64,000 bases of DNA from Syntrophobacterales bacterium (GCA_020060385.1 JAGVAH010000151.1:17474-81473); one strand, 5' to 3'; positions 17,512 to 46,516 are shown, numbered from the stretch's first letter. The notes: a model not told the origin generated them from the letters alone. Numbers and translations are program-made.

Positions 17512-17543
17512 GGCGGTGCGGGGGTCCTTGAGGGGGCCGGGGT

Positions 17544-17583
17544 CCGGGGGACCCCGGCCCTTATTTATTTTTTCCGTCTCTTC
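17544..17583 (+). terminator. intrinsic terminator
   Basis: Perfect 12-bp GC stem (gggccggggtcc / ggaccccggccc) followed by ttatttatttttt. Confidence 0.7.
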
Positions 17584-17894
17584 TGGGTTTCCGGCAGGAG
17601 CGGACCCATGTGTCCCCCCGGAAATGGGGGCGCCCCCTGGGGTGCCCCGGGGATTCCCGGTCTTTGATGGCGCTGGTTATCCAGAGCCTTCTGGATTAGT
17701 GAGAATTTTTTTAGGGAGAAGGGGCCTGCATCTTGCTTGCCAGGGTCTGGCGCGCCGCTGCCGCCTAAAATCCGATCCACTCATGGCGCCATCTGGGGGA
17801 GATTGGCGGGGTCACGGCACCCGTTGGACCCCGGGCGGGACCCAGGTTCCGTCTATGACCGCCTTCTTGGGCCAGTAGAGCCGCAGGATCAGGT

Positions 17895-28187: not shown

Positions 28188-28234
28188 TGGTCGGGACGAG
28201 AGGATTTGAACCTCCGACCCCCTGAACCCCATTC
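28188..28234. repeat. att direct repeat: 47-bp copy of the 3' part of tRNA-Pro(GGG)
   Basis: Exact identity with 48495-48541 (tggtcgggacgagaggatttgaacctccgaccccctgaaccccattc). Sequence diverges immediately outside both copies. Confidence 0.9.
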
Positions 28235-28402
28235 CGTTTCATTGCCTTTTTCTTATTTTTCCCGCCTTGAGAAAAATCTTGACATTTCCTGTAAAATAAG
28301 CAAATTAAAATCATAGATTTTGTGATGGTTTTACCCACTTAGAGATAGATTATCTTTTTATCACCCACACTACACCCACACCGAAAAAGAGGAGCTTTGA
28401 CA

Positions 28403-29587
28403 ATGGCTATTAATATCTTCTGTCCTGCCTGCAAGAGAAATTGCGGCTTGAAGGCTGAGGTTTGTAAGTGCGGGAACATATTTGGACGGAAAAAGCAGTA
28501 CCGGGTGCAGGTGTACCAGAATGGAAGGCCCGTTTATGATAAGGTGTTCCCTAACCTCGCACGGGCCGAAAAAGCTGAGACCATCAAGAAAGCAGAGCTT
28601 GAAACGAACGAGCTTGGCATTAAAGAGAAGCCGAAACCGGCCCCCACCTTGACAGAGGTTTGGCTCAAATACCAGGTTTGGGCCAAGGGGAATAAGAAAA
28701 CCTGGGATGATGACATGCTGAACTACGGGAAGCACCTGGCCCCCCGGTTTGGCAAGAAGCGCCTGGATGCCATCTCTGCCATGGAGGTGAACCGTTTAAA
28801 GCTGGAAATGGCCAAGGGGAAAACCAAAGACGGTGCCCCATACTTGAGCAAACGGGGGAAGCTCTTTTCCGCCAGTACTATCAAGCATCAACTGGTGCTG
28901 CTTCAAAGGCTCTATAAGTTTGCCCAAGGCCCCGACTTCAAGTACAAGGGGAGCACCCCATTCGACCATAAGCAGGTGGTAATGCCCCACCTGGATAACG
29001 AACTGCCAAGATTTCTAGCCGGTGACCAGTTGGCGGCCCTGTGGGGTGCCCTGGATGCTTGGCCGGAGAAGGTGACAGTGGGCTTTATCAAGTTCGCTTT
29101 GCTTACCGGGGTGCGCCGGGGCACATTATTTACTATCCGATGGGCGGACGTAGATTTTGAAAGAAGCATGGTGACCCTGACCATCTCTCACCGGCGGAAG
29201 GGGACCGAAACAGTTGCCAAGAAAGTTTGCCCGGAAGCGCTTGAAGCGCTTAGAGACCTGCCCCGGATTTCGGAGTATGTTTTCCCGGGCAAAGGTGGAG
29301 GGCAAAGGACAGATTTCAAAGGCCCCTGGCGGCGGATTAGGAAGGTGGCGGGGTTGCCAGACAGCATCCGCTTTCACGACCTAAGGCATACCTTTGGGAG
29401 CTATCACGCCATGAACGGGACTACCCCGCAAGTCCTGCAACAGTTGATGAACCATCGGGACTTCAGGACTACCCTGAAGTATGCCCACCTGTCCCCCGGC
29501 GTGGTTAACGAAAGGGCGGCCCGGACTGGCGAGATGTTGGCCCCAAAGAAGACAGAAGGCAAGGTTATCAATTTGACGGAAGATTGA
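28403..29587 (+). CDS. int: tyrosine recombinase / phage-type integrase
   Basis: SD agaggag. Arg-I GVRRGTLFTIRWADVD; HDLRHTFGS; NHRDFRTTLKYAHL (catalytic Tyr). N-terminal Cys-rich segment CPACKRNC..CKCG. Confidence 0.9.
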   Translation: MAINIFCPACKRNCGLKAEVCKCGNIFGRKKQYRVQVYQNGRPVYDKVFPNLARAEKAETIKKAELETNELGIKEKPKPAPTLTEVWLKYQVWAKGNKKTWDDDMLNYGKHLAPRFGKKRLDAISAMEVNRLKLEMAKGKTKDGAPYLSKRGKLFSASTIKHQLVLLQRLYKFAQGPDFKYKGSTPFDHKQVVMPHLDNELPRFLAGDQLAALWGALDAWPEKVTVGFIKFALLTGVRRGTLFTIRWADVDFERSMVTLTISHRRKGTETVAKKVCPEALEALRDLPRISEYVFPGKGGGQRTDFKGPWRRIRKVAGLPDSIRFHDLRHTFGSYHAMNGTTPQVLQQLMNHRDFRTTLKYAHLSPGVVNERAARTGEMLAPKKTEGKVINLTED

Positions 29588-29712
29588 GCGGCTATCAGGC
29601 CCTGATGTTAAACACAAGGATTTCCGGGGATAGGGTCGCTCCCGACAAGACGGTAATCCAGGCCGTCTTCCCCGGATTCACCCCCAGGAGCAACCGCGAC
29701 AGGAGGCGGAAT

Positions 29713-30432
29713 ATGGGTACTGTAGATCTCAAGCCAGAGGCGCTTGAAGCCACTCGGCTTTTCAATCAATACTGTCATCCTGAACACCCTCATTGGAAAA
29801 ACAAGCATAGAAAACAGGCCACCCTTGCCATGCTTGGGTCAGGAATCTTCGGAGATAACGAATTAAAGGGGCACGCTAAACACAAGACTACTTATCGAAT
29901 AGAAGTAAAGAATTTGATTTATGAACTGGTAAATGTTTACTGCGGCCATTCCTATATTCCCTCAACCTCTTATGTGAAAGAGGATATTCTCCGTGAATTT
30001 GGCCATCATTTTGCTTATGTTATTGCAATAGCACGGCTTGCTAGCATCAGAAAAGATGCGGTTGAAACTGTGGTTAAAGATTATGGGGATACTTGGGGTA
30101 AAAAAATATCTAATGCGGCTGATAAGGGTAAAATACCTACCAACTGGCGGAACCTTATAGAGGCAGAGGTGTTCTATGGTCAGCGCTATCAAACCCCCAA
30201 AATGGCTCACGAGTTTGCCGACATTTTTCTCTCATATTGTCCGTCTGCTCCACCTAACAGAATTGCCGGTTGGGTGATTGCCATGTTTAAATCTCTTGGG
30301 CTGGACTCTCCCGGCAAGACTAGTCTAAGCGATTACATTAAAAAGCGACAAAAAGAGGAACAGGAAAATATAATAGCCGCTGGAGAGGATATTAACAACT
30401 ATCAGAAAAAGGGAATTCAGATTCGATACTGA
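29713..30432 (+). CDS. hypothetical protein (AT-rich island gene)
   Basis: Long ORF open from 29584; the ATG at 29713 is preferred. No recognisable motif. Confidence 0.5.
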   Translation: MGTVDLKPEALEATRLFNQYCHPEHPHWKNKHRKQATLAMLGSGIFGDNELKGHAKHKTTYRIEVKNLIYELVNVYCGHSYIPSTSYVKEDILREFGHHFAYVIAIARLASIRKDAVETVVKDYGDTWGKKISNAADKGKIPTNWRNLIEAEVFYGQRYQTPKMAHEFADIFLSYCPSAPPNRIAGWVIAMFKSLGLDSPGKTSLSDYIKKRQKEEQENIIAAGEDINNYQKKGIQIRY

Positions 30433-30680
30433 TTACGTCCCCGCATAATCCCTCCATACCCGTCCGTTTACTTCCCGAAATTGCCCCCAGAAATGGGGGG
30501 TTCTTGTCTTAAAACCAGCAAATAAAACTTACATGCCGGAATATCGGTAAATAATGCCTATTTTGATGTTAATTTCTGGTAAGTAAATTAAGTCTTATTA
30601 CTTTGATTTCTTGTTAATTTTTATTATCATTATTTCACTATTGTGATGGTATGCTAAATTCAACTACGGAGGACGCTTAG

Positions 30681-30881
30681 GTGAGCAAGAATTTTGATTT
30701 AATTCGTGTCTGTAAAATTACACCTGAAGATGGCCTGCCCTACGGAAAGTCCTGTTTTTATAAATGGGCGCACTTAGGCAAACACCGTGAAATTTTTGTC
30801 CGATTCGGCGGCGGCCTCTTTATAGACCGGATCGCGCTAGAGCGGGCAATGGAAGCAGGCCGTTTGCTGGGGGAAAGATAA
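30681..30881 (+). CDS. small DNA-binding protein, excisionase/AlpA-like (MerR-type HTH)
   Basis: GTG start after acggagga. 66 aa with the pattern ..SCFYKWAHLGKHREIFVRFGGGLFIDRIALERAM.. typical of Xis/AlpA-size regulators. Position between int and the replication gene. Confidence 0.55.
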   Translation: MSKNFDLIRVCKITPEDGLPYGKSCFYKWAHLGKHREIFVRFGGGLFIDRIALERAMEAGRLLGER

Positions 30882-31025
30882 TGAACCGCCGTCCAGTAAC
30901 AGGCTCCGGAGCTTGCCGGCGGACCGGGGCGGCAAGGGTATGTCGGGGATCGAATTATATTGATAAAAGCCATTTCTTCCCCGGAAAACTAGTATTTTCA
31001 TGGCCTCTCAACCTGGAGGTGCGCC

Positions 31026-33707
31026 ATGGATAATCCTATCCTGCAAGCGGCCCTTGATTACCGGGCAGCCGGAATTTCCGTGATTCCTGTTTCTCCGACA
31101 ACCAAGAAGCCGAAGGTCAAATGGTCCGGCTACCAAGACCCCGAGAAGCTCCCGGATGAGGCCGAATTTCGGACGATGTTTAATCGCGCTAATGCCCTGG
31201 CTGCTATTTGTGGCCAGGTTTCCGGGAACCTGGAGGCGCTTGATTTCGACTTTCAGGCCGAACTATTCGAGCCGTGGCGTGAACTTGTGAACCATGAAGC
31301 ACCGGGACTCGTGGAGCGGCTTCCTTTGCAGAAGTCCCAACATGACGGGCGGCACATCGGCTTTCGCTGTCCTGGGATGAAAATTTCTGGCAACAAGAAA
31401 TTGGCGCAAAAGGGGGTTGACGTTACTGACCAAGTCTTGGCCGGGTTGACGGAACTAGGGGTTGACCCGACCGACGCTCCGGCAGTCAAAAAGGCATTGG
31501 TGGGGATGCGGGTTAAGGCTGGCGGAAAAGATGCAGCGCCTATTCCCCACCATGGCGGATTTGTCGCCGTCATCACGCTTGTCGAAACCCGTGGAGAAGG
31601 CGGCTATCTGCTGGTGGACCCTTCTCCCGGCTATAAGTGGCTCCGGGGAAGTCCTAAACGTGATATCCCCGAAGTCACCCCGGAAGAGCGGGAAGTGATG
31701 ATAAGGGCGGCCATGGCTCTCAACGAATGGGTAAACCCCAATGAGGTTGAAGGGCTGGGGTGGAACCTCCCTAAGGAAGCCCGGCGACCCGGCGATGACT
31801 ACAACGGACGCGGCCCTGTGGCGGAAATCTTGGAAAAACACGGCTGGCAGCCGGTGGGAGCCAGAGGGCTTTATCAGCATTACCGGCGTCCTGGCAAGGA
31901 CCGCGGACAGTCTGCCTCACTGATTGATGAGAAATGGTTCCGCGTTTTTAGCTCCAATGCCTATCCGTTTGAAGCCGAAACCACCTATTCTCCGTTCGGT
32001 GTCTATGTCCTCTTGGAACATGATGGAGATTTCGTCAAGGCTGCTGGGGAATTGGCGAAGCAGGGTTATGGTGAGCGTCAGAAGAAGCAAAAAGAGCAGG
32101 CAGAACAAAAACCTTCTCAGCAAGATATATTGCTCACCATTGCGGCGGCGGTTGAGTTGTTTCATACCCCAGACGAAGATGTATATGGAATCATTACCAT
32201 CAATGAACATCGGGAGACCTGGGCAATCCGCTCTAAAGGGTTCCGGCGCTATCTGGCTCATGAATTTTATAAGATAGAGGGCAAAGGCCCCCAGGCTGAG
32301 GCCCTGTCCTCTGCCCTGCAAGTCTTGGAGGCCCGGGCGCAGTTTGACGGCCCGGAGCGCCCGGTGTGGGTGCGCGTGGCAGAGCATGAAGGCGCAATCT
32401 ACCTGGACTTGGGGAATGATTCATGCGAGGCGGTGAAGATAACCCCGAACGACTGGGAATTGGTGTCAGACCCACCGGTATGTTTCCGCCGGACCCGTAG
32501 TATGACGGCCCTCCCCTACCCTGTGAGGGGCGGCAATGTCATGGAACTCAGGCAATTCCTGAACATCGCCTCCGATGCTGATTTCATTCTCCTGGTGGCT
32601 TTTCTCATAAGCGCTCTACGCCCCCGCGGCCCCTACCCGATATCGGTTCTCAATGGTGAGCAGGGGAGCGCCAAATCCACCACGGCCCGGTGCCTGGGTA
32701 ACCTCATAGACCCCAGCACCTCCCCTCTCCGTTCCACTCCCCGTGATGTGCGAGACCTGATGATTGCGGCCACAAATTCGTGGGTTTTGGGCTTCGACAA
32801 CCTCTCCGGCGTGAGTGACTGGCTTTCCGATGCTTTTTGTCGCCTCTCCACTGGCGGCGGATTCAGCACCCGTGAACTCTATACCGATAGGGAGGAAGTC
32901 ATCTTTGAGGCCACCCGTCCCATAATCCTGAACGGGATAGACGCCCTAACCAACCGGCAAGACCTGGCTGACCGGAGCTTGATTTTCAACTTGCCACAGA
33001 TTGAAAAAAAGAAGAGACGGAGCGAAAAGGAATTTTGGAAGGAGTTTGGGGAGGCCCGCCCCCGAATCCTTGGGGCATTGCTGGCCACGGTGAGCATGGC
33101 TCTCCGAAACATTGACACGGTAAAACTCCCGGACCCCCTCAGAATGGCCGACTTTTCCTTATGGGTTGCGGCGGCTGAACCGGCCCTCCCATGGCCCGCC
33201 GGTTCCTTCATGGAAGCCTATGCGCACAACCGGGCTGAAGCCGTGGAGCTATCCCTTGAAGCCGACTGTGTGGCCGTTACCATGCGGGAATTTATGGCCG
33301 ACAAAATTGAGTGGAGCGGCAAACCATCCCAGCTTTATGAAGAGCTTGAAAAGCTGGTGCCAGAGAATACCAAGCGGAGCAAGTTATGGCCCAAGGCGGC
33401 TAACAAGCTATCGAACCGGCTCACGCGGGCGGCTACCTTTCTTCGGGTTATCGGGCTTAATGTTGAAAACGGATGGTCAAAAACGGGGGAGAGGGAGATA
33501 AAGATTAGACGGGTTCCCAAGGGCAGGGAATCTACCGTGGGAACCGTGGGAACCGTGGGAAGTGAGGAAACATGCGGCTTTTCTTCCCACGATACCACAA
33601 ATGAACCGTGGGAAAGGAAAGCCGGTAATCATGCCCCTTTCCGCGATACCCACGATACCCACGATACTTTGCACACTCCGGACGGATTGGAGGAATTGGA
33701 GCTATGA
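31026..33707 (+). CDS. bifunctional primase-polymerase (PrimPol) fused to a P-loop helicase-like domain (P4 alpha / D5-like)
   Basis: N-terminus AALDYRAAGISVIPV..KKPKVKW and an acidic EALDFD motif. Walker A LNGEQGSAKST with a downstream Walker B-like VLGFDN. The C-terminal tail holds peptide repeats TVGTVGTVG / DTHDTHDT. Confidence 0.8.
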   Translation: MDNPILQAALDYRAAGISVIPVSPTTKKPKVKWSGYQDPEKLPDEAEFRTMFNRANALAAICGQVSGNLEALDFDFQAELFEPWRELVNHEAPGLVERLPLQKSQHDGRHIGFRCPGMKISGNKKLAQKGVDVTDQVLAGLTELGVDPTDAPAVKKALVGMRVKAGGKDAAPIPHHGGFVAVITLVETRGEGGYLLVDPSPGYKWLRGSPKRDIPEVTPEEREVMIRAAMALNEWVNPNEVEGLGWNLPKEARRPGDDYNGRGPVAEILEKHGWQPVGARGLYQHYRRPGKDRGQSASLIDEKWFRVFSSNAYPFEAETTYSPFGVYVLLEHDGDFVKAAGELAKQGYGERQKKQKEQAEQKPSQQDILLTIAAAVELFHTPDEDVYGIITINEHRETWAIRSKGFRRYLAHEFYKIEGKGPQAEALSSALQVLEARAQFDGPERPVWVRVAEHEGAIYLDLGNDSCEAVKITPNDWELVSDPPVCFRRTRSMTALPYPVRGGNVMELRQFLNIASDADFILLVAFLISALRPRGPYPISVLNGEQGSAKSTTARCLGNLIDPSTSPLRSTPRDVRDLMIAATNSWVLGFDNLSGVSDWLSDAFCRLSTGGGFSTRELYTDREEVIFEATRPIILNGIDALTNRQDLADRSLIFNLPQIEKKKRRSEKEFWKEFGEARPRILGALLATVSMALRNIDTVKLPDPLRMADFSLWVAAAEPALPWPAGSFMEAYAHNRAEAVELSLEADCVAVTMREFMADKIEWSGKPSQLYEELEKLVPENTKRSKLWPKAANKLSNRLTRAATFLRVIGLNVENGWSKTGEREIKIRRVPKGRESTVGTVGTVGSEETCGFSSHDTTNEPWERKAGNHAPFRDTHDTHDTLHTPDGLEELEL
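33534..33667. repeat. iteron-like cluster (ccgtgggaa direct and inverted copies; cccacgata units)
   Basis: accgtgggaaccgtgggaaccgtgggaag; cttcccacgatacc; aaccgtgggaaagg; gatacccacgatacccacgatac. All lie within 134 bp at the 3' end of the PrimPol-helicase gene. Confidence 0.7.
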
Positions 33708-34012
33708 CCCTCAACCCCGGAATCGAGGCGGTGCGTAAGCTGGCCAATATGGGCTATCGGTTCACGGTGAACGGAGAGAGCATCAAGGGAAAGTACTTCG
33801 GCCCCGACAAGCCGGACCCTGCCGTGGTGTCTCCCCTGCTGCAAGTGGCCCGCCAGCATCGGGGGGATGTGCTGGCCTTTCTTTCTTGCTTCTGCCCCCG
33901 CTGCGGTGGCGTGGCTTCCTGCCCGGACTACGAGGGGAGGCCCGTGTGTTTGGCCTGTGATTGGACGGAACTAAGCCGGCTGTACCCCGGCTTGGCAGAA
34001 GTGAAGAATTGA
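33704..34012 (+). CDS. hypothetical Cys-rich (zinc-ribbon-like) protein
   Basis: ATGA overlap with the upstream stop. CFCPRCGG..CPDYEGRPVCLAC. Confidence 0.55.
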   Translation: MTLNPGIEAVRKLANMGYRFTVNGESIKGKYFGPDKPDPAVVSPLLQVARQHRGDVLAFLSCFCPRCGGVASCPDYEGRPVCLACDWTELSRLYPGLAEVKN

Positions 34013-34039
34013 CCTGGAAACGGTCTCGGTGGAGGTGCC

Positions 34040-34330
34040 ATGAGCAACCGCAGATTTACTCCGAAGCAACTGCGATTTTTAGAACTCTTTTTTTCCGGCT
34101 TCATGATGAAAGACGCTGCCCGCGGTGCGGGCTACCAGGGGCGAAGCGACCAAAGCCTTTGCAATCTGGGGCTGAGGATTCTGCGTAAATTTGTCGGAGA
34201 CCCAAAGACGGTTTTTAGGCGTCGGCCCGGGGCTATTCGTGGAAAGAACATCAGTCAGATGCTCGAAGGCTCCCCAAAAGAGCAACTCGCGGCCCTGAAA
34301 ATCATATCGACATTTGTCGACAGGAGGTGA
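34040..34330 (+). CDS. small HTH protein resembling the N-terminal DNA-binding domain of terminase small subunits
   Basis: FTPKQLRFLELFFSGFMMKDAARGAGY follows the LTPKQ..F....n..AA..AGYS pattern of Terminase_2 N-termini. At 96 aa it is shorter than a full TerS. Confidence 0.45.
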   Translation: MSNRRFTPKQLRFLELFFSGFMMKDAARGAGYQGRSDQSLCNLGLRILRKFVGDPKTVFRRRPGAIRGKNISQMLEGSPKEQLAALKIISTFVDRR

Positions 34331-34641
34331 CCACCGTGGCCCGGGGACTTTCAAGCCTTCAACGTGAAATTTTATGTCTCGCCTCGGAAAAAAGATTTGT
34401 TACATACAAAGAGATGATCGAAGAATTCTGGGGCTTGCAGGACCGGGACGGGAGGTCCAAAGAGCGCACCTATGATGCGGCTCACGCAAGCCTAAGCCGC
34501 TCTGTCAGCCGATTATGGGCACGTAACTTGGTCGATGTCTGGAAAGGTGTAACCGGTTGGGGGACAGGGGTAACTCTGACGGGCGATGGCGAGGAATTTG
34601 TTTTGGCCATTTCCGCGGAAGAGGAATTAATGGATAAGTAG
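34327..34641 (+). CDS. hypothetical protein, possible winged-helix
   Basis: GTGA overlap with the upstream stop. LSSLQREILCLASEKRFVTYKEMIEEF. Confidence 0.45.
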   Translation: MTTVARGLSSLQREILCLASEKRFVTYKEMIEEFWGLQDRDGRSKERTYDAAHASLSRSVSRLWARNLVDVWKGVTGWGTGVTLTGDGEEFVLAISAEEELMDK

Positions 34642-35028: not shown

Positions 35029-38000
35029 ATGGATGAAGCCAAGCTGATCCAGGCCAGAGACGCCCTCACTCGCTACTGCCTAAGCATCCGGCAAATCCGC
35101 CAGGACCCCGGCCACCATCCCGAAACCTCCCTTTACACCCCTTTGGAAAACCTGTTGCGGGAACTGGCCGCCATCCTAGATACCAAAATTACCGTCATCC
35201 AGCAGTATTCCACTGGAGAGATCGGCGCTCCGGATTTCTGCATCAAGCCTGCCGGAAAGTCCTTGGCTTTCTCGGAAGCCAAGGAGCCCGATAAACACCT
35301 GGATAACTTGCGGGGCCGGGACCGGGAACAACTGGAGAAATACCGGGAGTTGCCCAACCTGCTATACACTAACTTCTGGGACTTGAAACTCTTTCAGGAA
35401 AAGAGCGAAGTGCAGCAGGCGGTCCTTCTGCCCCGGGAATGCCTGGACCCCGGGATTCCTTATACCGCCCGGCTTGCGTCCCATGATCCTGGCCCTGCTT
35501 TGGATCTGTTGGCCCGGTTCTTTACTTACTCCCTCCCCTACATCACTAAGCCGGCCCAACTCTGCCAGCACCTAGCCCGGGCCGCCCGCCTGGTCAGGGG
35601 CGCGGTGGAAGAGGCCATGGAGATCGCGCCCCCCGACTCTCCTCTGGGCCAGATTTACTCCGAGTTTCGGGATATCCTGTTCTTCGAGTTGGACCAAAAG
35701 GAATTTGCCGACGCCTACGCCCAGACCCTGGCCTATGGCTTATTGCTGGCTAGGCAGGCGGCCACCGGCCAGACCCTGGCCCTGGCCACGGCCCACACCT
35801 TCATCAGTCCGGAAAGACATCGCCTCCTCGCCGCCACCCTGAACCTCCTGGCCCAGCCGCCGGTCACCGCTATGGTGGGCTGGAGCTTGGCCTCCCTGGT
35901 GGAACTGGTGAACCAGGTGGACCCCGGAGTGCTGGCCTACGAGGACCCGGCCCATGACCCCTTGCTCTATTTCTATGAAGACTTCCTGGCCGAATATGAC
36001 CCGGAACTGCGGCGTAAGCGGGGCAGCTATTACACGCCCCCGCCGGTGGTGAACTTCCAGACCAGGGTGATCAACCGCCTGCTGGTGGATCGTTTTCAAC
36101 GGCGCTACGGCCTGGCCGATGCAGGTATTGAGATTCTTGATCCCGCAGTGGGTACCGGCACTTATCTGGTTTCCGCCCTGGGGGAAGGCTGCCAGCATAT
36201 GCGCCGGGCCATGGGCGAAGCCGCGGTGCCCCAGGCCGCCACCCACCTGGGCAACCACCTTCATGGCTTTGAAATCCAGGTGGGGCCGTATGCCGTGGCC
36301 CATTACCGTCTGGCCACCGCGGTGCAAGAATATGGCGGCCATATCTCCGGGCGCCTGCCCATATATTTAACCGATACCCTCTTGCCCTCTTATGGCCAGC
36401 CCCAGGTCACCCCCCACTTCGGTTTCATGTCTGCGCCCATCACCGAGGAGCGTCAGGGTGCGGACCGGGTCAAGGCGGAGATCCCCATCATGGTCATCAT
36501 TGGTAATCCCCCTTATGGCCGGGGCAAGGCCGAAACCGGCTGGGTCTGGGAAGTCCTGATGGAAGATTTTCGCAAGGAGGTGCCACCGGAATACCGCATC
36601 GATCTGAAGAACCTGGCAGAATGGTATGCTTATTTTTATCGCTGGGCCATGTGGAAGCTCTTTGAACAGGAGGCGGCCCCCAATCGGGGTATCTTGAGCT
36701 TCATCACCAATTCCCGCTGGCTCATTGGCGGGGCCTTCGGGGGCATGCGCCAGATGTTCCGGCGCTACTTCGACCGGATTTATATCCTGGACCTGCACGG
36801 TGACGGCCGGGCCCCTTTACCCGCGGGGGTGGAGGTAGACCAGAACGTCTTTGACATCCAGGTGGGGGTGGCCATCGCCGTGTGTGTCGCCGACGGCTCC
36901 CGAGGCGAGGCGGAGGCGGAAGTTTATTATACCGACGAGTGGGGCAGCAGGACCTCGAAGGAGGAATGGCTCAACCAGTTCCCCGAAAACCTGCCCCTGG
37001 ATTGGTTTGAGGTGGTTTCCGGAAGTGGCCTGGACCCTTTCTATCCGAGTATGGAAGTGAATTTTACCACTTGGCCCGATTTGCGTTCCATATTCATTAA
37101 AAAATTTAGTGGTGTCGAGACGAAGAGAGATAAGTTAGTAGTTGCTCCAACTAAAGATGAAATCCAAAGAAAAATTACTATTTTTCTTAATGCTCCTGAA
37201 AACCAAAAGGAAGAAATTTTCCATAATACGCGAGATAAAACTTACTACAGGGCAGCCGAAACAAGTTTTGACCCCACCTTGATTGCTCCGTATGCATATC
37301 GTCCTCTTGATAACCAATTTATATATTATCATCAATCATTTATAGACTATGATCGTAGAAATTCATTAAAACCTTGTTGGGGGTCTAATAACCTTTCTTT
37401 GGCTTCTCTTCAATATCGTCATGGGCGCGGCCCCGTAGCTTTTCTGCAATCGGTCCTTCCCAACCGTCATGTTTATGGAGGCCATGGCGGTCACATCTTT
37501 CCCCTTTGGGACAAATCCACCGGCGCTTGGAGCACCCACAACTTTCACCCCGCCTTGCTGGAAAAACTATCCACTTTTTGGGGTCAAGAGATAACCCCAG
37601 AGCAGCTTTTCGCTTACTGCTACGGGGTCCTGGCCTGGGAAGGTTATAGCCTGCGCTTTGCCCGGGAGCTGGCCCGGAGCTTTCCCCGTGTTCCCTTTCC
37701 CCGTGATCATAATCTTTTCCAGGAGGGCGCGGAGTTAGGGCAGCACCTCATCAACTGGCACAGCTTCCAGGAGCGTTACCCCGGCGACGGTTCCATCACC
37801 ATCCAGGGGCCAGCAACCACCATCGAGAAGAGCGAGTATGACCCCCCAAACCGCTGCCTCTATTTGGCAGAGGAAACCAACGCCGCTCCGGTCTCCCTGG
37901 AGGCTTGGGACTATGTGGTAAGTGGCTATGAGGTCCTGCGCCAGTGGGTGAAACGTCGCCTGGGGCTCCCCATGACCCTGGAAATCCAGAGACAGTTGCT

Positions 38001-38115
38001 CGATGTGATCTGGGCGGTGGAGCAGACGGTGAATCTGCGCCCGGCCTTAAATGACTTTGGTGAACGTCTTTTGGCCGCTACGCACTTTTCGATTCAGGAA
38101 CTGGGGATAGGGTAA
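35029..38115 (+). CDS. single-polypeptide type IIG/IIL restriction-modification enzyme (PD-ExK nuclease + N6-adenine methyltransferase + C-terminal specificity region)
   Basis: N-terminus GAPDFCIK-x14-SEAKE (PD..ExK). SAM motif I ILDPAVGTGTYL. Motif IV IIGNPPYGR. C-terminal WDYVVSGYEVLRQWVKRR, typical of the type ISP/IIG tail. Confidence 0.8.
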   Translation: MDEAKLIQARDALTRYCLSIRQIRQDPGHHPETSLYTPLENLLRELAAILDTKITVIQQYSTGEIGAPDFCIKPAGKSLAFSEAKEPDKHLDNLRGRDREQLEKYRELPNLLYTNFWDLKLFQEKSEVQQAVLLPRECLDPGIPYTARLASHDPGPALDLLARFFTYSLPYITKPAQLCQHLARAARLVRGAVEEAMEIAPPDSPLGQIYSEFRDILFFELDQKEFADAYAQTLAYGLLLARQAATGQTLALATAHTFISPERHRLLAATLNLLAQPPVTAMVGWSLASLVELVNQVDPGVLAYEDPAHDPLLYFYEDFLAEYDPELRRKRGSYYTPPPVVNFQTRVINRLLVDRFQRRYGLADAGIEILDPAVGTGTYLVSALGEGCQHMRRAMGEAAVPQAATHLGNHLHGFEIQVGPYAVAHYRLATAVQEYGGHISGRLPIYLTDTLLPSYGQPQVTPHFGFMSAPITEERQGADRVKAEIPIMVIIGNPPYGRGKAETGWVWEVLMEDFRKEVPPEYRIDLKNLAEWYAYFYRWAMWKLFEQEAAPNRGILSFITNSRWLIGGAFGGMRQMFRRYFDRIYILDLHGDGRAPLPAGVEVDQNVFDIQVGVAIAVCVADGSRGEAEAEVYYTDEWGSRTSKEEWLNQFPENLPLDWFEVVSGSGLDPFYPSMEVNFTTWPDLRSIFIKKFSGVETKRDKLVVAPTKDEIQRKITIFLNAPENQKEEIFHNTRDKTYYRAAETSFDPTLIAPYAYRPLDNQFIYYHQSFIDYDRRNSLKPCWGSNNLSLASLQYRHGRGPVAFLQSVLPNRHVYGGHGGHIFPLWDKSTGAWSTHNFHPALLEKLSTFWGQEITPEQLFAYCYGVLAWEGYSLRFARELARSFPRVPFPRDHNLFQEGAELGQHLINWHSFQERYPGDGSITIQGPATTIEKSEYDPPNRCLYLAEETNAAPVSLEAWDYVVSGYEVLRQWVKRRLGLPMTLEIQRQLLDVIWAVEQTVNLRPALNDFGERLLAATHFSIQELGIG

Positions 38116-38139: not shown

Positions 38140-38409
38140 ATGAGCTTCTGCCTGAACGAGTCGGCTCACCGGCGCAGCGTCCAGGCCAAGGTCTGGGGCT
38201 ACGACATCGGCGGCTACCAGGTCATCAAGAAGTTGCTCTCATACCGGGAACACGACCTCCTGGACCGCTCCCTCACCCCGGACGAAGCCCGGGAAGTCAT
38301 GAACATGGCCCGGGGCCTGGCCGCCATTGTCTTGATGGAACCGGCACTGAACGCAAATTATCAGGCATTGAAAAGGTCAACATACTCTTGGCCCAAAAAC
38401 TTACCTTAA
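38140..38409 (+). pseudogene. orphan 89-aa ORF homologous to the C-terminal tail of type ISP/IIG R-M enzymes (gene remnant or detached module)
   Basis: VWGYDIGGYQVIKKLLSYREHDLLDRSLTPDE parallels WDYVVSGYEVLRQWVKRRLGLPMTLEIQ at the end of the preceding gene. Confidence 0.45.
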
Positions 38410-38900
38410 TACCGTCCGGACCTTTTAGGGGGCCAGGATTACCCTGCCTAATTTCAAGAAAAATCTGCCCTCTTAAAAGCCCCAAGAGGAAATCCTAAAA
38501 ACTTTCCAACATAGTTTCATATCTGGAATCGTGGTTCTCGGCCTACCAGAGCAGATAATGGCAAGCTATCTATCATAGTTGGCAAAATACCCATGTAGAT
38601 AAAGGTTTGGGAGCAGATTCGATGCTTCCAGAGAATTTAAAAGTTATTTTTCCTCGTCTTACGTCTTATCATTATCTGTTGGTGTTACTCTGGGTTATTT
38701 AGCCTGAAAATCAGATCTGGGCTGACCTTCTCTGGCGTCTAATAACCGCAGAGGGGGGTTTTAGAAAGGTTTTATGTTATCATCCTTCTGAGAGTGGAAA
38801 TCCATCCCCTGGCGAAGTTCGAAAAATATTTCCATACACCTACTTGAGCAGCCATCGTCTGATTCCCGCGGAAAGTGGGCGATTGAGGAGTTTTACAGCT

Positions 38901-40478
38901 ATGCGGGCTTTATTGGTATGTCCCGAATTTCCCCTTTCCTTTTGGAGTTTCCAGAAATCTTGCCGGCTCCGGGGTAACAAAACTGTTAATCCACCGTTGG
39001 GCTTGATTACGGTGGCAGCATTGCTGCCGGCCGAATGGGAACTGCGTTTGGTCGATCTCAACACTGGCAGCTTGACGGAGGAAGATTGGCAGTGGGCCGA
39101 TCTGGTCTTGATCTCGGCCATGTACATTCAAAGAGCGGGTTTGGTGGCCCTGGTAAAAGAAGCCAAGCGCCGGGGGAAAACCGTCGTCGCCGGGGGACCC
39201 CACCCCACTTCGCTCCCTGAGGCTGTCCTGGAGGCCGGTTGTGATTTTGTGGTGCGGGGCGAAGGCGAAAATACGATTCCCTTATTGCTGGAAGCGATGA
39301 GAGTTGGCAAGAACGGGATCATCGAAAACGACGCCAAGCCGGATCTGACTACCTCACCGGTCCCGCGCTTCGACCTGTTGCGGCTGCAAGATTACGCCAC
39401 CGTGACCATTCAGACTTCCCGGGGCTGCCCCTTTGACTGCGAATTTTGCGATGTGGTGAACCTTTTCGGCCGCATTCCCCGGTACAAGACCCCCCAGCAG
39501 GTCCTGGCCGAACTGGAGACCCTCCATCGGCTCGGGGCCAGGGGGTCGGTGTTCATCTGCGATGACAACTTCATCGGCAGTAAGAAGCACGCCCGGGCCC
39601 TTCTGCAAGAGCTTACCCCTTGGCTGCGGAGCCGGGGGGAACCTTTCCATTTCATGACCCAGGCCTCGGTGAATCTGGGGCAGGATCTGGAGATGATCGA
39701 CCTCATGACTGCAGCCAACCTGGATAAAGTTTTTATCGGCATCGAGTCTCCGGATGAGAAGGTGCTACAAGCTAGCCACAAATATCACAACATCAGGAAT
39801 CCTCTCGTTGAATCGCTCCGCAACATCAAAGAGAATGGCATAGGAGTCATAGGCAGTTTCATCATCGGTCTGGATGGGGAAACGAAAGGGGCTGGCGAGC
39901 GCATCTGCGCCTTCCTGGAAGAGACCGCCATACCGGTGGCCATGCTTGGGGTCCTGCAGGCCGCGCCGCACACTAAACTGTGGCATCGACTGGAGAAAGA
40001 AGGGCGGCTGCGCCCGGACGTGGGAGATGACGCGGGGACTTTCTCAGCCATGAACCTCGAGCCGGATCGGCCGGAAGCCGAGATCATGCAGGAGTACGCC
40101 GAGGCCTGGGACTATCTTTACGAACCTTCCCGCTATCTGGCGCGGGCTTACCGCTATCATCTGGCCATGCGTGCGGCTCACCGGGCCCAGGGAATGACGT
40201 TGCGCCAGATATTAATTGAAGCCAAGGCTTTTTTCCAAATCCTCTGGTGGCAAGGGGTGCGCACGCCATACCGGCGCCAGTTCTGGACCCAGATGCTCGG
40301 GCTGTTGCGGCGCAACCCCACTAGATTTGTGGAGTACATCGTCACCTGCGCCATGGGCGAGGATCTCTTCAATATGAGAAAGGTGGTGCGGGAAAAGGCC
40401 ACGGCCATCATGAAGGAGCTGCAGATAGAGGTACCCGCCACGCCACCCCGGCGTGACGTGGGCTCCAGGGCAGGTTAG
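38901..40478 (+). CDS. B12-binding (class B) radical SAM enzyme, DUF4070-type C-terminus
   Basis: SD gaggag before the ATG at 38901. N-terminal B12-binding Rossmann region (ADLVLISAMY..VVAGGPHPT). Cluster motif SRGCPFDCEFCD. Confidence 0.8.
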   Translation: MRALLVCPEFPLSFWSFQKSCRLRGNKTVNPPLGLITVAALLPAEWELRLVDLNTGSLTEEDWQWADLVLISAMYIQRAGLVALVKEAKRRGKTVVAGGPHPTSLPEAVLEAGCDFVVRGEGENTIPLLLEAMRVGKNGIIENDAKPDLTTSPVPRFDLLRLQDYATVTIQTSRGCPFDCEFCDVVNLFGRIPRYKTPQQVLAELETLHRLGARGSVFICDDNFIGSKKHARALLQELTPWLRSRGEPFHFMTQASVNLGQDLEMIDLMTAANLDKVFIGIESPDEKVLQASHKYHNIRNPLVESLRNIKENGIGVIGSFIIGLDGETKGAGERICAFLEETAIPVAMLGVLQAAPHTKLWHRLEKEGRLRPDVGDDAGTFSAMNLEPDRPEAEIMQEYAEAWDYLYEPSRYLARAYRYHLAMRAAHRAQGMTLRQILIEAKAFFQILWWQGVRTPYRRQFWTQMLGLLRRNPTRFVEYIVTCAMGEDLFNMRKVVREKATAIMKELQIEVPATPPRRDVGSRAG

Positions 40479-40840
40479 CGGCAGCCTCGTAGAAGCCCGG
40501 GTGCTTGCCCCTTGACATTAGGCCCACCTTTTTATACCATTATTTTAATTAAACAGAGTGGGATTCAAAGCTAATCCAAACTTTCCTCCAGAAAAGCTAA
40601 CCAAGACCTTGTCGCTGGCAATCCAAAGTCTGATGTAAGGCACAATAATGGAGTAACGCCGCATATTACTTATGGCGTTAAGAGTTTGTCTGTCTGCATT
40701 CCCCTCTAAATGGCCATTTTTAGTGGAAGCGTGGGGAAAAGGGCGACAAATTCGCAAAGTAAAGTGCGCCGCGACCAATCTGTTAATGGAAGCATTTTAA
40801 TATACGGGGCTTTTCCCTGAACTTAGAAGAAAAGGAACCT

Positions 40841-42088
40841 ATGGAATTTAACACCTTTGATTTTCATCACCAGGTTATGGCGGGCGTTAGCGCGGCGCGC
40901 TATCTAACGCCAACGCCGATACAGGCACAGGCAATCCCGCTGGTCATGCAAGGGCACGATATCGTGGGCCTGGCCCAGACCGGCACCGGCAAGACCGCGG
41001 CCTTTGTGCTGCCAATTCTCCATCGCCTGATGCAAGGCAGGCGCAGGCACGTCAGGGCCCTGATTATTGCCCCCACGCGCGAACTGGCCGAGCAAATCCA
41101 TCAGGCCATTGGCACCCTGGGAAGCCGGACCGGACTCAAGAGCGTTACTATTTATGGAGGAGTTGGCTTCAACCCGCAGGCGGATAAGCTGAAACGCGCC
41201 GCCGCGATTGTCGTTGCCTGTCCCGGCCGCCTGCTTGACCATATCAGTCGTGGCACCATCGACCTCTCACATCTGGAAGTGCTCGTACTGGACGAGTCAG
41301 ACCGGATGTTAGACATGGGATTTCTGCCCGATATCAGAAAGATCATCGAGCACTTGCCGGCAAAACGCCAGACGCTTTTGTTCTCAGCAACCATGCCGGA
41401 TGATATTCTGCATCTATCCCGGGCAGTCCTGAAAGCACCGGTGACGGTGCAGGTTAATGCTACTGGACCGGCAAGCACTGTCTCTCATAAACTTTATCCG
41501 GTCGCGCAGCACCGTAAGACCCCGCTGCTCCTCGAACTGTTGCGCCATACCGCTACTGAGTCGGTTCTGATCTTTACGCGCACCAAACATCGGGCCAAGC
41601 GTCTGGGGGAACAGTTGGGGAAGGCCGGCTATCGAGCAGCATCACTGCAGGGAAATCTCTCCCAGGCGCAGCGTCAGGCGGTGATGAACGGGTTCCGCAA
41701 CGGCAACTTCCAGATACTTGTGGCCACTGACGTGGCCTCCCGGGGGATCGACGTGACCCAGATTTCCCACGTAATCAATTACGATATGCCGGATACTACT
41801 GATGCCTATACCCACCGAATCGGACGTACCGGCCGCAATGCCAAGAGCGGTGATGCCTTCACCTTTATTACTTCTGAAGATGAGGATATGGTGCGCAGCA
41901 TCGAGCGGGTCCTCCGCACCAAGGTAAAGCGTTGTATACTGAATGGTTTTGATTATAAAATGGCGGCACCGCCAGGCGATGCCGAGTTCGCACGGCCGCG
42001 ACGTAAGCCGCAGCGGCGCTTGGAACAGAAAAACCCCAAATCATTCAAAGCTTATGGTGAAGGCGCGCATTCTTTTGGACACAGATAG
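40841..42088 (+). CDS. DEAD-box ATP-dependent RNA helicase (RhlE-like), with DESD in place of DEAD
   Basis: Q-motif; AQTGTGKT; PTRELA; LDESDRMLDMGF; SAT; HRIGRTGR; basic C-terminal tail. Confidence 0.9.
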   Translation: MEFNTFDFHHQVMAGVSAARYLTPTPIQAQAIPLVMQGHDIVGLAQTGTGKTAAFVLPILHRLMQGRRRHVRALIIAPTRELAEQIHQAIGTLGSRTGLKSVTIYGGVGFNPQADKLKRAAAIVVACPGRLLDHISRGTIDLSHLEVLVLDESDRMLDMGFLPDIRKIIEHLPAKRQTLLFSATMPDDILHLSRAVLKAPVTVQVNATGPASTVSHKLYPVAQHRKTPLLLELLRHTATESVLIFTRTKHRAKRLGEQLGKAGYRAASLQGNLSQAQRQAVMNGFRNGNFQILVATDVASRGIDVTQISHVINYDMPDTTDAYTHRIGRTGRNAKSGDAFTFITSEDEDMVRSIERVLRTKVKRCILNGFDYKMAAPPGDAEFARPRRKPQRRLEQKNPKSFKAYGEGAHSFGHR

Positions 42089-42467
42089 AGGTTAAATCAA
42101 GCAGCCGGGAGCAACCCTGATATTGCTTCCGGCGGGCTGGGGCCGGGGTTTTGTGATCCTGATGTTAGGATAATCCCAGTTTCCGTGCAAAAATGCGCTA
42201 AAATCCAGGAGGGGTGCGTCAGAGAAAAGGGTGAGGCTCTCTAGCACGCCAGTCATGACGCAGGATCGAGCCCCAATTTGACTAAGCGACTGGTTAGCCA
42301 GGTTGGATCAGAGATGGCGATAGCTCCTATGACCTGCCCCGTTTCCAACAAAAAAATGGTTATTTGCTATGGTTAGCATAACTACATTTCAGGTCATTGC
42401 CCTTTTCAAATCTTACCTCAATTTATAATATCCCTCTTTACGCTACTATCCTCAGCCTGTCAGGTGA

Positions 42468-42941
42468 CTAGGCAAGACGCAATTGCGCCAGCGAGGCCCT
42501 GGCGCTGCCACCGCTGATATCCGGCACAATCTTTAATTCGAGCACGGTTACCCTGTCGAGATCGACCTCGTAGTTTTCGACCTCCCGGGTTTCCCCAGGC
42601 GGACTGAAGTTATATTGTTGGCGCAGAATCTCCCGGTAGGTCTGACCGCCGTCTGGTGACCATCGCAAAACGAACTCTTGGGTGCGCTCCTGCTCGCCTT
42701 CATGGAACATCAGGTGGACCCGCCTAAGGCTCAGCGGCTCATCAAACAGGAGGCGAATGGTCTGCTCCCCTGGCTCCGCCGCCCGCCAACCCTGGCCCGT
42801 ACCCTGAATCAGCGCCGATTCAATCGGATAGTCGGCATCTTCGGACGTGATTTCGGCTTGGGCCAAGAGGTCAAGGTCCAGCCAACCGGGCTCGGGGGCT
42901 TCGACCTCACGAGGCCCATGACCGATAATGCGCTTACGCAT
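42468..42941 (-). CDS. hypothetical protein, possibly a discoidin/F5-8 type C-like beta-sandwich
   Basis: 157-aa ORF and the only minus-strand gene in the island. The fold call is weak pattern recognition only. Confidence 0.4.
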   Translation of the reverse strand: MRKRIIGHGPREVEAPEPGWLDLDLLAQAEITSEDADYPIESALIQGTGQGWRAAEPGEQTIRLLFDEPLSLRRVHLMFHEGEQERTQEFVLRWSPDGGQTYREILRQQYNFSPPGETREVENYEVDLDRVTVLELKIVPDISGGSARASLAQLRLA

Positions 42942-43114
42942 AGAGTCTTCCTCCTTTTCCCCATTCTAGTTTAACTTATATATTAAGTGGATTCTATTTT
43001 TTTCCCCTAAGTCACTTTGACGGATGCCTTAAAAAATAACCTCTATTATTTATAGTATTATTTATAGGGGTTAATTGGAGTCCCGGGATTTTGCTGCCAA
43101 TTATTTTAATTGGC

Positions 43115-43142
43115 TTGACATCAAATAATTTTTTTGTAAAAT
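43115..43142 (+). promoter_or_regulatory. sigma70-like promoter candidate for csp
   Basis: TTGACA-N16-TAAAAT, about 160 nt upstream of the csp ATG. Confidence 0.5.
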
Positions 43143-43196
43143 ACATCCAAGTTTAGCATGTCAGAATGAAATCAGGGCCACAAGTCCTGGACAAAA

Positions 43197-43234
43197 ATCG
43201 GACGGGGGTGCTAATTCCCGGCCGATTTTTTTTT
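43197..43234 (+). promoter_or_regulatory. terminator-like hairpin + T9 inside the csp 5' leader (possible attenuator/thermosensor)
   Basis: atcggacggg / cccggccgat (9 of 10 bp paired) followed by nine T residues, between the promoter candidate and the csp start. Confidence 0.4.
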
Positions 43235-43301
43235 GCCTGACTGCTGTGCGCCCTGCTTTTTGGGCAGGAATATCTTTGCAGTATTTGTTGGAGGTTTCAC
43301 C

Positions 43302-43505
43302 ATGAAGGAAACTGGTACGGTTAAATGGTTTAATGACTCGAAAGGCTTTGGTTTCATTACCCGGGAAAACGGTCCGGATGTGTTTGTACATCACAGCGCC
43401 ATTCTGGGCGAAGGCTTCCACACCCTGTCAGAAGAACAGGCAGTAGAGTTCGATGTAACCCAGGGTCCCAAGGGTCCCCAGGCCCAAAACGTCGTAAAAC
43501 TTTAG
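43302..43505 (+). CDS. cold-shock protein, CspA family
   Basis: [15 protein letters not shown] (RNP1) and DVFVHHSAI (RNP2); 67 aa. Confidence 0.9.
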
Positions 43506-43586
43506 GCCAAACAGCCTAAAGAGCGGACCTCCGTCGGTCTCTGGACCCTCGGAGTTCCGCCACCTTGATTATTAAAGAGGTAGAAC

Positions 43587-43733
43587 TTGGCACGTAACCG
43601 TTATAGCTGGCAAAAGCGGGTAAAAGAGTTGGCCCGAAAAGAAAAAAATGACGAAAAAATGAAACGTCGCCAGGGAAAAACCACGCCACCGCCGACGGAG
43701 GAAATGCCGAGGGAGGTTGAAGAAGGAACTTAA
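43587..43733 (+). CDS. possible 48-aa Lys/Arg-rich small protein (TTG start)
   Basis: SD aagagg lies 8 nt before the TTG. Translation LARNRYSWQKRVKELARKEKNDEKMKRRQGKTTPPPTEEMPREVEEGT. Absent from the supplied ORF track, presumably below its size cut-off. Confidence 0.3.
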   Translation: MARNRYSWQKRVKELARKEKNDEKMKRRQGKTTPPPTEEMPREVEEGT

Positions 43734-43776
43734 AGGTACTGACGGGCAGGTCCGGCAAGACCAACAGGGAGAAGAT

Positions 43777-44082
43777 ATGAGTATCAAATTGTACGTGGGC
43801 AATCTATCCTACGAGACTACCGAAGAACAGCTGAACTCTTTGTTCTCCGAGGCCGGCGCCGTGGCCTCGGCCAAGATCATCACCGACCGGCAGACGGGTC
43901 AACCCCGGGGTTTCGGTTTTGTGGAAATGGAGAGCAAAATGGACGGCCAAAAGGCCATTTCCATGCTCAACGGCCGTAATATAGATGGCCGCGCCCTGGC
44001 AGTCAATGAAGCCAAACCGCAGCAAAAAGGCGGATTTGGGGGCGGCCGTGGCGGCCGCGGCGGCCGCGGCGGTTACCGCTAG
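43777..44082 (+). CDS. RRM-type RNA-binding protein with C-terminal RGG tail
   Basis: RNP2 KLYVGNL, RNP1 RGFGFVEM, tail GGGRGGRGGRGGYR. Confidence 0.9.
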   Translation: MSIKLYVGNLSYETTEEQLNSLFSEAGAVASAKIITDRQTGQPRGFGFVEMESKMDGQKAISMLNGRNIDGRALAVNEAKPQQKGGFGGGRGGRGGRGGYR

Positions 44083-44146
44083 AGCCGGGGGTCAGGTGCT
44101 AGGAAGTAGACACTTTACTATCAGTCCTGGGATTTTCGGGTAATCG

Positions 44147-44175
44147 AAAGGCGGCCTTTGGGCCGCCTTTTTGTT
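44147..44175 (+). terminator. intrinsic terminator
   Basis: aaaggcggcc-tttg-ggccgccttt followed by ttgtt. Confidence 0.7.
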
Positions 44176-44243
44176 CAGAAACTGAATCAGCGGTGTTATT
44201 TCCGCGATTCCTTAAGCGTCAGCAGATGCGAAGGATTTTCTTA

Positions 44244-45782: not shown

Positions 45783-45861
45783 ACTGAACTGCTCTGTGTC
45801 GAGGTGGCTCAGGAGAAGACGCAGACCAATGCCTCTAGATAAGACCGACAAGGAGAAGGCG

Positions 45862-46479: not shown

Positions 46480-46516
46480 GTTAGCGAGGAGAACAAGGGT
46501 CATCGAGGAGACCTAT

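Follow-up and report, generated by a model that had tools for sequence, protein, structure and literature searches.

What kind of mobile element carries an integrase, an excisionase-like regulator and its own replicase without any capsid or conjugation gene? This question is raised by a 64,000-nt stretch of DNA from a Syntrophobacterales bacterium (GCA_020060385.1, JAGVAH010000151.1:17474-81473; hereafter the window, in whose coordinates positions are given unless another locus is named), in which an original prediction from the sequence alone had read positions 28403-34641 as the backbone of a phage satellite or an integrative plasmid. Open reading frame (ORF) listing and translation bore out its seven co-directional plus-strand genes at the predicted coordinates, but showed only part of the element: these genes are not free-standing and form the left third of a 20.3-kb island (28188-48541) inserted in tRNA-Pro(GGG) and bounded by an exact 47-nt direct repeat. 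We interpret this island as an integrative, self-replicating element with the organisation of a phage-inducible chromosomal island (PICI), a reading to which we assign a probability of roughly 0.55 and which leaves the route of transfer open; in its integrative and replicative nature, taken alone, we place high confidence.

Backbone genes and signals of the island

Integration at the tRNA gene is recorded in the two ends of the island, where a displaced copy of the tRNA 3' end faces the intact gene, and a pair of co-oriented 21-nt repeats lies just inside them (Table 1); co-oriented motif pairs on both sides of the attachment site attP are known from helper-embedded PICIs (HE-PICIs; PMC10111431). 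Pfam and PHROGs searches over the island ORFs gave zero matches to capsid, tail, portal, large terminase or lysis genes, as had been predicted.

The replicative capacity of the island is carried by an 893-aa protein in which the predicted combination of a PrimPol and a P-loop helicase-like domain with adjacent iterons was confirmed. The Prim-Pol domain (PF09250) covers residues 9-216 (4.2e-12) and the match to phrog_19930 residues 8-387 (2.3e-50), while the P-loop domain spans about residues 370-830, the C-terminal part (32100-33707) making up 55-60% of the protein. This C-terminal domain has more than 6000 homologues at 50-73% identity, in which the fused N-termini vary (PrimPol, PriCT_1, Toprim, zf-CHC2, DUF3854 or uracil-DNA glycosylase (UDG)), and the motif GxxGxAKST was invariant in 20 of them. 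The domain has no Pfam model or PDB relative, and profile searches against PDB and Pfam returned only weak P-loop matches; a single-sequence query of the replicase found no close relative in genome_contigs. The domain is called a putative helicase here on account of its P-loop, its fusions to primases and its occurrence as a plasmid Rep.

Inside the 3' end of the replicase gene lies an iteron cluster, in which ACCGTGGGA occurs three times in tandem, together with inverted copies, and CCCACGATA three times. The repeats are in frame within the gene and encode the peptide repeats TVGTVGTVG and THDTHDT in the C-terminal tail of the protein. We compared the island by tblastn and hidden Markov model (HMM) searches with related elements, fetched as loci labelled L001-L018 and onwards, and found clusters of direct and inverted copies at or just after the replicase 3' end in L001, L003, L007 and L010, each with a repeat sequence specific to its element. 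Such element-specific iterons are the expected signature of a cognate origin of replication (ori), for which the cluster is thus a candidate, and in PICIs the rule is an ori downstream of the primase gene pri (PMC10111431).

At the left end, the tyrosine integrase retains the readable catalytic motifs HDLRHT and LKYAHL, and its N-terminus reads as a zinc-ribbon-like CxxC..CxC motif. Between the int stop codon and the ATG of the following gene, p239, we found an int-alpA RNA motif (Rfam RF02996) that the gene list of the original prediction did not contain. The same motif scored above the gathering score at the equivalent position in L013 (3080-3146, 47.3 bits), L009 (9913-9982, 42.8 bits) and L010 (5779-5847, 41.1 bits), and the whole int-p239 spacer, RNA included, is conserved in L007 and L008. 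The gene that follows the RNA here is p239 and not alpA. In E. coli, where the Rfam consensus has matches in 177 genomes, the one inspected (L018; NZ_CP027586, 2134869-2145030) holds a capsid-less island of about 10 kb between yicC and dinD, which ends near a tRNA-Tyr annotation and carries, in this order, int, int-alpA RNA, a 317-aa unknown gene, an HTH (helix-turn-helix) gene, two Icd-like genes, a toprim primase, DUF927, an SSB fragment, PerC and Mor. Its gene order is that of the present island, and both the RNA and the gene position behind int could be modelled well in this laboratory strain; the 317-aa gene is unrelated to p239, and its candidacy as a homologue was rejected (hhalign probability 0.3). 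Since members of the element family conserve the RNA, and in E. coli it occupies the same relative place before an unrelated gene, its position suggests a cis-acting leader for whichever gene follows int, rather than a small RNA linked to alpA. A small hairpin further down the spacer, at the p239 Shine-Dalgarno sequence, adds almost no covariation evidence, since the pairs of hairpin and spacer are mostly invariant in the six-element set and show one compensatory change.

The gene behind the RNA had been predicted to encode an unknown protein of 240 aa; the gene stands, and its product is 239 aa long, with an ATG start supported by the conserved N-termini of its homologues and by the conserved RNA and Shine-Dalgarno sequence just upstream. 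About 20 homologues (40-65% identity) were found, all in Desulfobacterota-type metagenome-assembled genomes (MAGs) or metagenomes, and p239 directly followed int in every context with enough upstream sequence to read, being in some relatives better conserved than int itself. An AlphaFold2 (AF2) model was confident and all-alpha (pLDDT 84), with no structural neighbour in PDB or BFVD, and the sequence had no match in Pfam, NCBIfam, PHROGs or PADLOC.

Downstream of p239, the 66-aa product of hth66 gave no Pfam match as a single sequence. A profile of its family (six members) aligned with an AlpA/HTH_17 set, composed of proteins from positionally equivalent genes, over its full length at an hhalign probability of 93.8% (E 1.7e-7, 53 columns), which agrees with the AlpA/Xis-like assignment made earlier and makes hth66 a candidate excision factor and operon activator. 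Consensus scans placed a terminator-like hairpin after p239 and promoter-like sites before hth66, and this layout suggests that int, RNA and p239 are transcribed together and that hth66, replicase, p102, p96 and p104 make up a second, AlpA-led operon; Gram-negative PICIs (GN-PICIs) show a comparable AlpA-led arrangement (PMC10111431). A further promoter-like site upstream of the restriction-modification (R-M) gene comes from the consensus scan only.

The three small genes behind the replicase had been described as translationally coupled, which holds for p102 and p104 with their 4-nt overlaps and fails for p96, which stands behind a 28-nt gap with a Shine-Dalgarno sequence of its own. Homologues of p102 follow a PrimPol gene in L003 and L017. 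In p96, the pattern FTPKQ..F....AA.GAGY of terminase small-subunit (TerS) DNA-binding domains is present, and the profile comparisons below lift the likeness above chance. Searched with the family profile, PDB returned the SF6 small terminase at E-values of 1.2e-5, 3.4e-5 and 9.3e-5, over the HTH only, and the family aligned with the Terminase_2 domain at an hhalign probability of 81% over 37 columns; p96 itself scored 15 bits against Pfam Terminase_2 (E 0.039, residues 7-37 on profile positions 2-32), below the cut-off of 26.1. An AF2 model (pLDDT 70) contains a three-helix HTH and one C-terminal helix, and its top three Foldseek matches were SF6 TerS structures (probability 0.91-0.95, 35-36% identity over about 45 residues), with E-values that are not significant alone. 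The N-terminal HTH thus aligns with the DNA-binding domain of the Terminase_2 small terminases (SPP1/SF6 G1P; PDB 3zqq, 2cmp, 4zc3), whereas p96 differs from these in its length of only 96 aa, in a core and beta-barrel that were not detected, and in having no large terminase (TerL) gene beside it.

Judged from these profiles and models, the HTH of p96 is a genuine terminase-type DNA-binding domain. The protein as a whole is not a small terminase, since its oligomerisation core was not detected and the island has no TerL; neither the central oligomerisation helices nor the C-terminal beta-barrel of TerS were found, a second HMMER stretch having an i-Evalue of 5.7e3. The original prediction was to fall if p96 showed no structural similarity to TerS HTH domains, and this refutation fails, the likeness being limited to the HTH. 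Equating the C-terminal helix of p96 with the TerS oligomerisation helix, on the weak and non-significant resemblance of QLKALKIL to KALELLGK, was rejected as more than a lead, because HMMER and hhalign alignments never extended there.

A word-seeded search found only two close homologues of p96, each with a p104 homologue behind an unrelated replicase, which in L006 is DUF5906 and in L007 D5_N together with a Toprim-like protein; in L010, p104 stands without p96. When 1.8 billion representatives were searched with the profile, 52 relatives emerged, most of which span all 96 residues. Pfam Terminase_2 was found in 5 of the 40 relatives scanned, and these match p96 only at residues about 5-60; one relative of 346 aa joins three HTH copies to a full Terminase_2 domain, and another fuses two HTH copies to a GIY-YIG/T5orf172 nuclease. 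Contigs were short around the genes of the longer family members. The partner p104 may be winged-helix-like, going by its sequence pattern, and had no Pfam or PDB match.

Related elements and known element classes

The backbone recurs in other elements with its replicase exchanged. We found int together with p239 in L007, L008, L009, L010, L013, L015, L016 and L017, all from other Desulfobacterota MAGs or metagenomes, and detected a homologue of hth66 in L007, L008, L010, L013 and L017. The replicases of these relatives differ, being D5_N plus Toprim-like, NrS-1-type plus D5_N/DUF5906, PrimPol plus PriCT_1, or unknown proteins of 423-450 aa, and downstream of them stand small HTH proteins followed by defence cargo (type I, II and IIG R-M, TIR, GmrSD, Fic). 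No capsid, conjugation or partition gene was found in the related elements examined, which disposes of the idea, raised in the original prediction, that homologous elements might always carry conjugation or partition genes. One relative, L017, is a decayed member whose int and p239 are split over frames (8639-10618). Its p96-like gene, likewise split, follows some 6 kb further downstream in the opposite orientation (17094-17806, minus strand).

The organisation of the island is that of Gram-negative PICIs and of tycheposons. We used the five core components of SatelliteFinder (PMC10085698) as the test for a PICI and found three of them, namely the integrase, a regulation module (AlpA-like) and a primase-replicase with adjacent ori, a three-of-five class that the authors of SatelliteFinder call ambiguous (PMC10085698). 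GN-PICIs follow a plan of unidirectional int, alpA and pri with the ori after pri and with pairs of arm motifs (PMC10111431). The island resembles them in its one-direction int, AlpA-type HTH and primase-helicase, in an ori at or after the replicase end, in its downstream small regulators (PMC10085698, PMC10111431), in the co-oriented subterminal repeats around the att core, in its defence cargo and in the Rfam int-alpA RNA. It is unlike them in lacking a capsid-morphogenesis gene and a full small terminase, in the orphan 239-aa gene between int and HTH, in its large size (20 kb) and in its Desulfobacterota-type anaerobic host, and its dependence on a helper is putative; more than 99.9% of the PICIs found with SatelliteFinder were in Proteobacteria and Firmicutes (PMC10085698).

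Tycheposons of Prochlorococcus share with the island a tRNA-targeting tyrosine recombinase, a flanking partial tRNA, an excisionase-like HTH, a primase/helicase and niche-adaptive cargo, and among them cargo-carrying and terS-bearing (PICI-like) forms have one backbone in common (10.1101/2020.12.28.424599). The tycheposon traits of tRNA-site integration, a partial tRNA, a tyrosine recombinase, replication genes and cargo were found here. Tycheposons have hosts of another phylum and have not been described with the RNA motif or p239, and the likeness is one of organisation.

Of the P4-like and PICI-like satellites named in the original prediction, the island is not P4-like and is PICI-like in its organisation. 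The island shares with satellite phage P4 an integrase, an AlpA-family regulator, a primase-helicase (alpha in P4) with an iteron ori and the defence hotspots, but its replicase is of a different family, and Pfam and PHROGs searches of the backbone ORFs brought up no homologue of Psu, Sid or Delta. A parallel for an island without capsid-remodelling genes comes from the PICMIs of Vibrionaceae, minimal satellites with int, alpA and primase that lack such genes, are small and gene-poor, and have been proven to be packaged by virulent helper phages (PMC10803314). The present island differs from them in its 20 kb and in being no more than a candidate satellite. The lack of capsid-remodelling genes thus does not exclude a satellite life style.

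Single-protein replicons offer another comparison. In pRN1-type plasmids, ORF904 combines PrimPol and NTPase as the sole replication protein, as in the integrative relatives pSSVi and pSSVx; some of these replicons integrate and some are packaged by helper viruses. The island shares with them a single large PrimPol-NTPase protein on a small replicon, and differs in its bacterial host and in an NTPase that belongs to an uncharted P-loop family and not to the recognised SF3/D5 helicases. Neither the island nor the related elements examined yielded a relaxase, a coupling protein or a type IV secretion system (T4SS), which sets the island apart from integrative conjugative or mobilisable elements (ICE/IME). 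No ParA/ParB partition or plasmid maintenance gene was found in the island or its relatives either, the replicase domain being the only thing they have in common with plasmids.

Transfer route and competing explanations

Several results weigh against a PICI-like element. No island ORF had a head-related Pfam or PHROG match that could represent the capsid-morphogenesis component, and p96, with homology confined to the HTH and a sub-threshold Terminase_2 match, does not supply the small terminase. The p96-type HTH is also found fused to GIY-YIG nucleases and DnaB-type helicases and is therefore no marker of packaging. There was no tblastn match for p96 in INPHARED phages and no match for p96, p104, p239 or hth66 in IMG/VR, and the island has no known helper phage. 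With 20.3 kb, of which 14 kb are cargo, it belongs to the small tail of large sizes that has been reported for P4-like satellites (PMC10085698). In each of the three assemblies containing the island (two of them Joint Genome Institute (JGI) metagenomes) it is integrated, at 99.99-100% identity, and a sequencing-run search with a 6.6-kb island query listed no run. Finally, among annotated proteins the helicase-like domain comes closest to ORFs of small plasmids, with 41-45% identity against 29% for phages.

This last result leads to the most serious competitor, which we consider tenable and less probable than the PICI-like reading: an integrated plasmid or integrative replicon without any tie to phages. 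The PrimPol/P-loop protein would then be a plasmid Rep, the element would alternate between episomal and integrated states and spread by transformation, vesicles or conjugative piggy-backing, and p96 and p104 would regulate copy number or transcription. The closest annotated relatives of the helicase-like domain speak for it, which are an ORF with a ParA-like gene as its neighbour on an 18-kb plasmid of Methylobacterium (45%) and the one large ORF that the 12-kb plasmid pH6Ac of Methanothrix contains (41%), with further occurrences on many small Streptomyces plasmids; so do the large adaptive cargo, typical of plasmids, and the lack of phage-derived structural or hijacking genes in the island. 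Yet the domain also occurs outside plasmids, in a protein of a Microbacterium phage with the annotation DNA helicase or primase (29%) and in 58 IMG/VR contigs, of which those examined carry TerL, portal, protease-MCP (major capsid protein) and ParB-methylase genes. These are real phage-like genomes, and the replicase is part of the phage gene pool as well; p239, hth66, p96, p104 and p102 were found in none of the 58. Being common to plasmids, phages and islands, the replicase module cannot decide the life style. Against a plasmid stand the partition, relaxase and T4SS genes missing from the island and from the family elements examined, the match of int-alpA RNA, AlpA-like gene and unidirectional order to PICI-type islands, and the TerS-type HTH protein conserved behind unrelated replicases. 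Between satellite and integrative plasmid, the evidence leans mildly towards a PICI-like element. One of the IMG/VR contigs, L042 (13.5 kb), combines the helicase-like replicase with a portal, a protease-MCP fusion and TerL, and may represent either a small phage or a satellite that forms capsids.

For a PICI-like element, transfer in the capsids of a helper phage is our best single guess, held at somewhat less than even odds; it draws on the PICMIs, which manage without capsid-remodelling genes (PMC10803314), and on the backbone shared by cargo-carrying and PICI-like tycheposons (10.1101/2020.12.28.424599). A far-reaching version of this guess, which we regard as speculative and rank below the plasmid explanation, would make the island the first recognised phage satellite of the Desulfobacterota (Thermodesulfobacteriota), with p96/p104 as a stripped-down small terminase that binds a site on the island and recruits or re-targets the helper terminase to package the 20-kb island together with its R-M and cold-shock cargo, and with int-alpA RNA and p239 as a helper-sensing switch.

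The observed identity of the three assemblies would also suit a fixed defence or adaptive genomic island, whose mobility genes are relics and which has lost excision and replication. All three copies are integrated at one site, and the frameshifted int and p239 of L017 show that decay happens in the family. On the other side, the 47-nt and 21-nt repeats are exact, the backbone ORFs are intact with good ribosome-binding sites, and the iterons are intact as well; the three assemblies represent one strain and therefore say little about mobility. We judge fixation improbable. A search of sequencing runs with a 1.5-kb query listed one sediment metagenome, in which the backbone had zero depth and only the tRNA and conserved cargo genes matched, and the attL/attB flank pattern gave 0 matches in metagenome_contigs, a collection without the samples of the pattern-bearing JGI contigs L081 and L082, so that this zero carries no weight. 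A prophage stripped of its structural genes is very improbable: the integrase, the tRNA site and the TerS-like HTH are prophage features too and the replicase family occurs in phages, but the independent relatives examined are just as compact and capsid-free, differ in replicase and cargo and show no fragments of structural genes, and no PHROG structural match was found, including among the short ORFs tested in 46.9-48.5 kb.

For the PICI-like element, we propose the following course of events. The integrase gene, int-alpA RNA and p239 would form a single transcription unit, and a promoter in the AT-rich gap would serve the operon of hth66, replicase, p102, p96 and p104. On some cue, the AlpA-like protein would activate this operon and steer Int towards excision of the island at the 47-nt core, with the 21-nt subterminal repeats as arm sites. 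The resulting 20.3-kb circle would replicate from the iteron ori, primed by the PrimPol domain and unwound by the P-loop domain as helicase, while p96 and p104 might be DNA-binding proteins that serve in regulation or, as a pair, in packaging specificity. Passage to new cells would most likely take place in helper-phage capsids, no other transfer device being encoded, and with its type IIG R-M enzyme and its cold-shock cluster the island could repay the host for carriage.

To our knowledge, nearly all phage satellites and tycheposon-like elements described so far come from Proteobacteria, Firmicutes or marine cyanobacteria. The island and its relatives show that the same building plan, composed of an integrase, int-alpA RNA, an AlpA-type switch, a replaceable primase-helicase accompanied by iterons of its own and a slot for defence or adaptive cargo, exists in anaerobic sediment bacteria of the sulfate-reducer type. 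They widen the host range of the Rfam int-alpA RNA, which precedes a variable gene and not alpA, define p239 as an orphan-fold protein travelling with int and the RNA, and expose a very large family of P-loop replicase domains (more than 6000 members) common to plasmids, phages and islands. The p96/p104 pair provides a concrete candidate for a minimal terminase-derived DNA-binding module. Should the island prove to depend on a helper, it would be a vehicle by which restriction systems and genes for cold adaptation pass from one uncultured anaerobe to another.

Cargo, right end and surroundings of the island

Table 1. Features of the tRNA-Pro(GGG) island in window coordinates, with the evidence for each.
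Feature	Position	Strand	Evidence
attL core, displaced copy of the tRNA-Pro(GGG) 3' 47 nt	28188-28234		exact 47-nt direct repeat with 48495-48541
Subterminal 21-nt repeat ACCCACACTACACCCACACCG, copy 1, candidate arm-type Int or AlpA site	28363-28383	+	exact co-oriented copy at 48405-48425
Tyrosine integrase, 394 aa	28403-29587	+	PF00589 (Phage_integrase) 3.6e-23; phrog_1 2.2e-48
int-alpA RNA motif (Rfam RF02996)	29623-29689	+	37.1 bits; gathering score 35.8
Small hairpin CCGC..GCGG around the p239 Shine-Dalgarno sequence (AGGAGG, 29701-29706)	29694-29709	+	consensus fold of six elements
p239, conserved backbone protein, all-alpha orphan fold	29713-30432	+	homologues; AF2 model
Terminator-like hairpin after p239	30483-30501	+	consensus scan only
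AT-rich control region, two promoter-like sites before hth66	30528-30630	+	consensus scan; GC 0.43
hth66, AlpA/HTH_17-like small winged-HTH protein, 66 aa	30681-30881	+	family profile against AlpA/HTH_17 set
Replicase, 893 aa: N-terminal archaeo-eukaryotic primase (AEP) PrimPol, C-terminal P-loop NTPase, repeat-encoded tail	31026-33707	+	PF09250; phrog_19930
Iteron cluster, candidate ori	33534-33668		direct and inverted 9-mers
p102, C-terminal CxxC..CxxC zinc ribbon	33704-34012	+	sequence; overlaps replicase stop by 4 nt
p96, 96 aa, small-terminase-type HTH (residues about 5-55) and family-specific C-terminal helix	34040-34330	+	profile; structure
p104, partner of p96	34327-34641	+	overlaps p96 stop by 4 nt
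Type IIG R-M enzyme, 1028 aa, defence cargo	35029-38115	+	PADLOC REase_MTase_IIG 6.3e-179; Pfam Type_ISP_C, N6_Mtase, Eco57I
89-aa fragment resembling the type IIG C-terminal tail	38140-38409	+	Type_ISP_C 0.0016; PADLOC 2.7e-4
Adaptive cargo: two B12-radical-SAM genes, DEAD-box helicase, Csp, two RRM proteins, unknowns	38844-46858		Pfam
Subterminal 21-nt repeat, copy 2	48405-48425	+	just inside the right end, orientation as copy 1
attR core, 3' 47 nt of tRNA-Pro(GGG)	48495-48541		exact repeat
Intact tRNA-Pro(GGG)	48495-48571	-	ARAGORN; Rfam tRNA 56.9 bits; repeat

The R-M gene next to the backbone, predicted to be defence cargo, proved by PADLOC and Pfam to encode a full-length type IIG enzyme (Table 1). 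It is 84% identical to its counterpart in L015 (15803-18886), where the backbone is far more diverged (p239 41%, int 23%), and this difference points to a recent exchange of defence cargo between elements. Towards the tRNA, an ORF-poor stretch of 1.5 kb (46859-48404) had no Pfam or PHROG match among the ORFs tested and no Rfam match; this is where pac/cos or arm-binding sites would be expected. Upstream of the island csp gene, at 43249-43558 (plus strand), lies a sub-threshold match to the Rfam cspA thermoregulator (30.8 bits, gathering score 78). Just outside the island, the segment 27138-27294 recurs as an inverted copy (98.7% identical) at positions 1-157 of both JGI contigs, L081 and L082, and this inverted repeat at the contig starts fits a repeat of the miniature inverted-repeat transposable element (MITE) kind that breaks assemblies.

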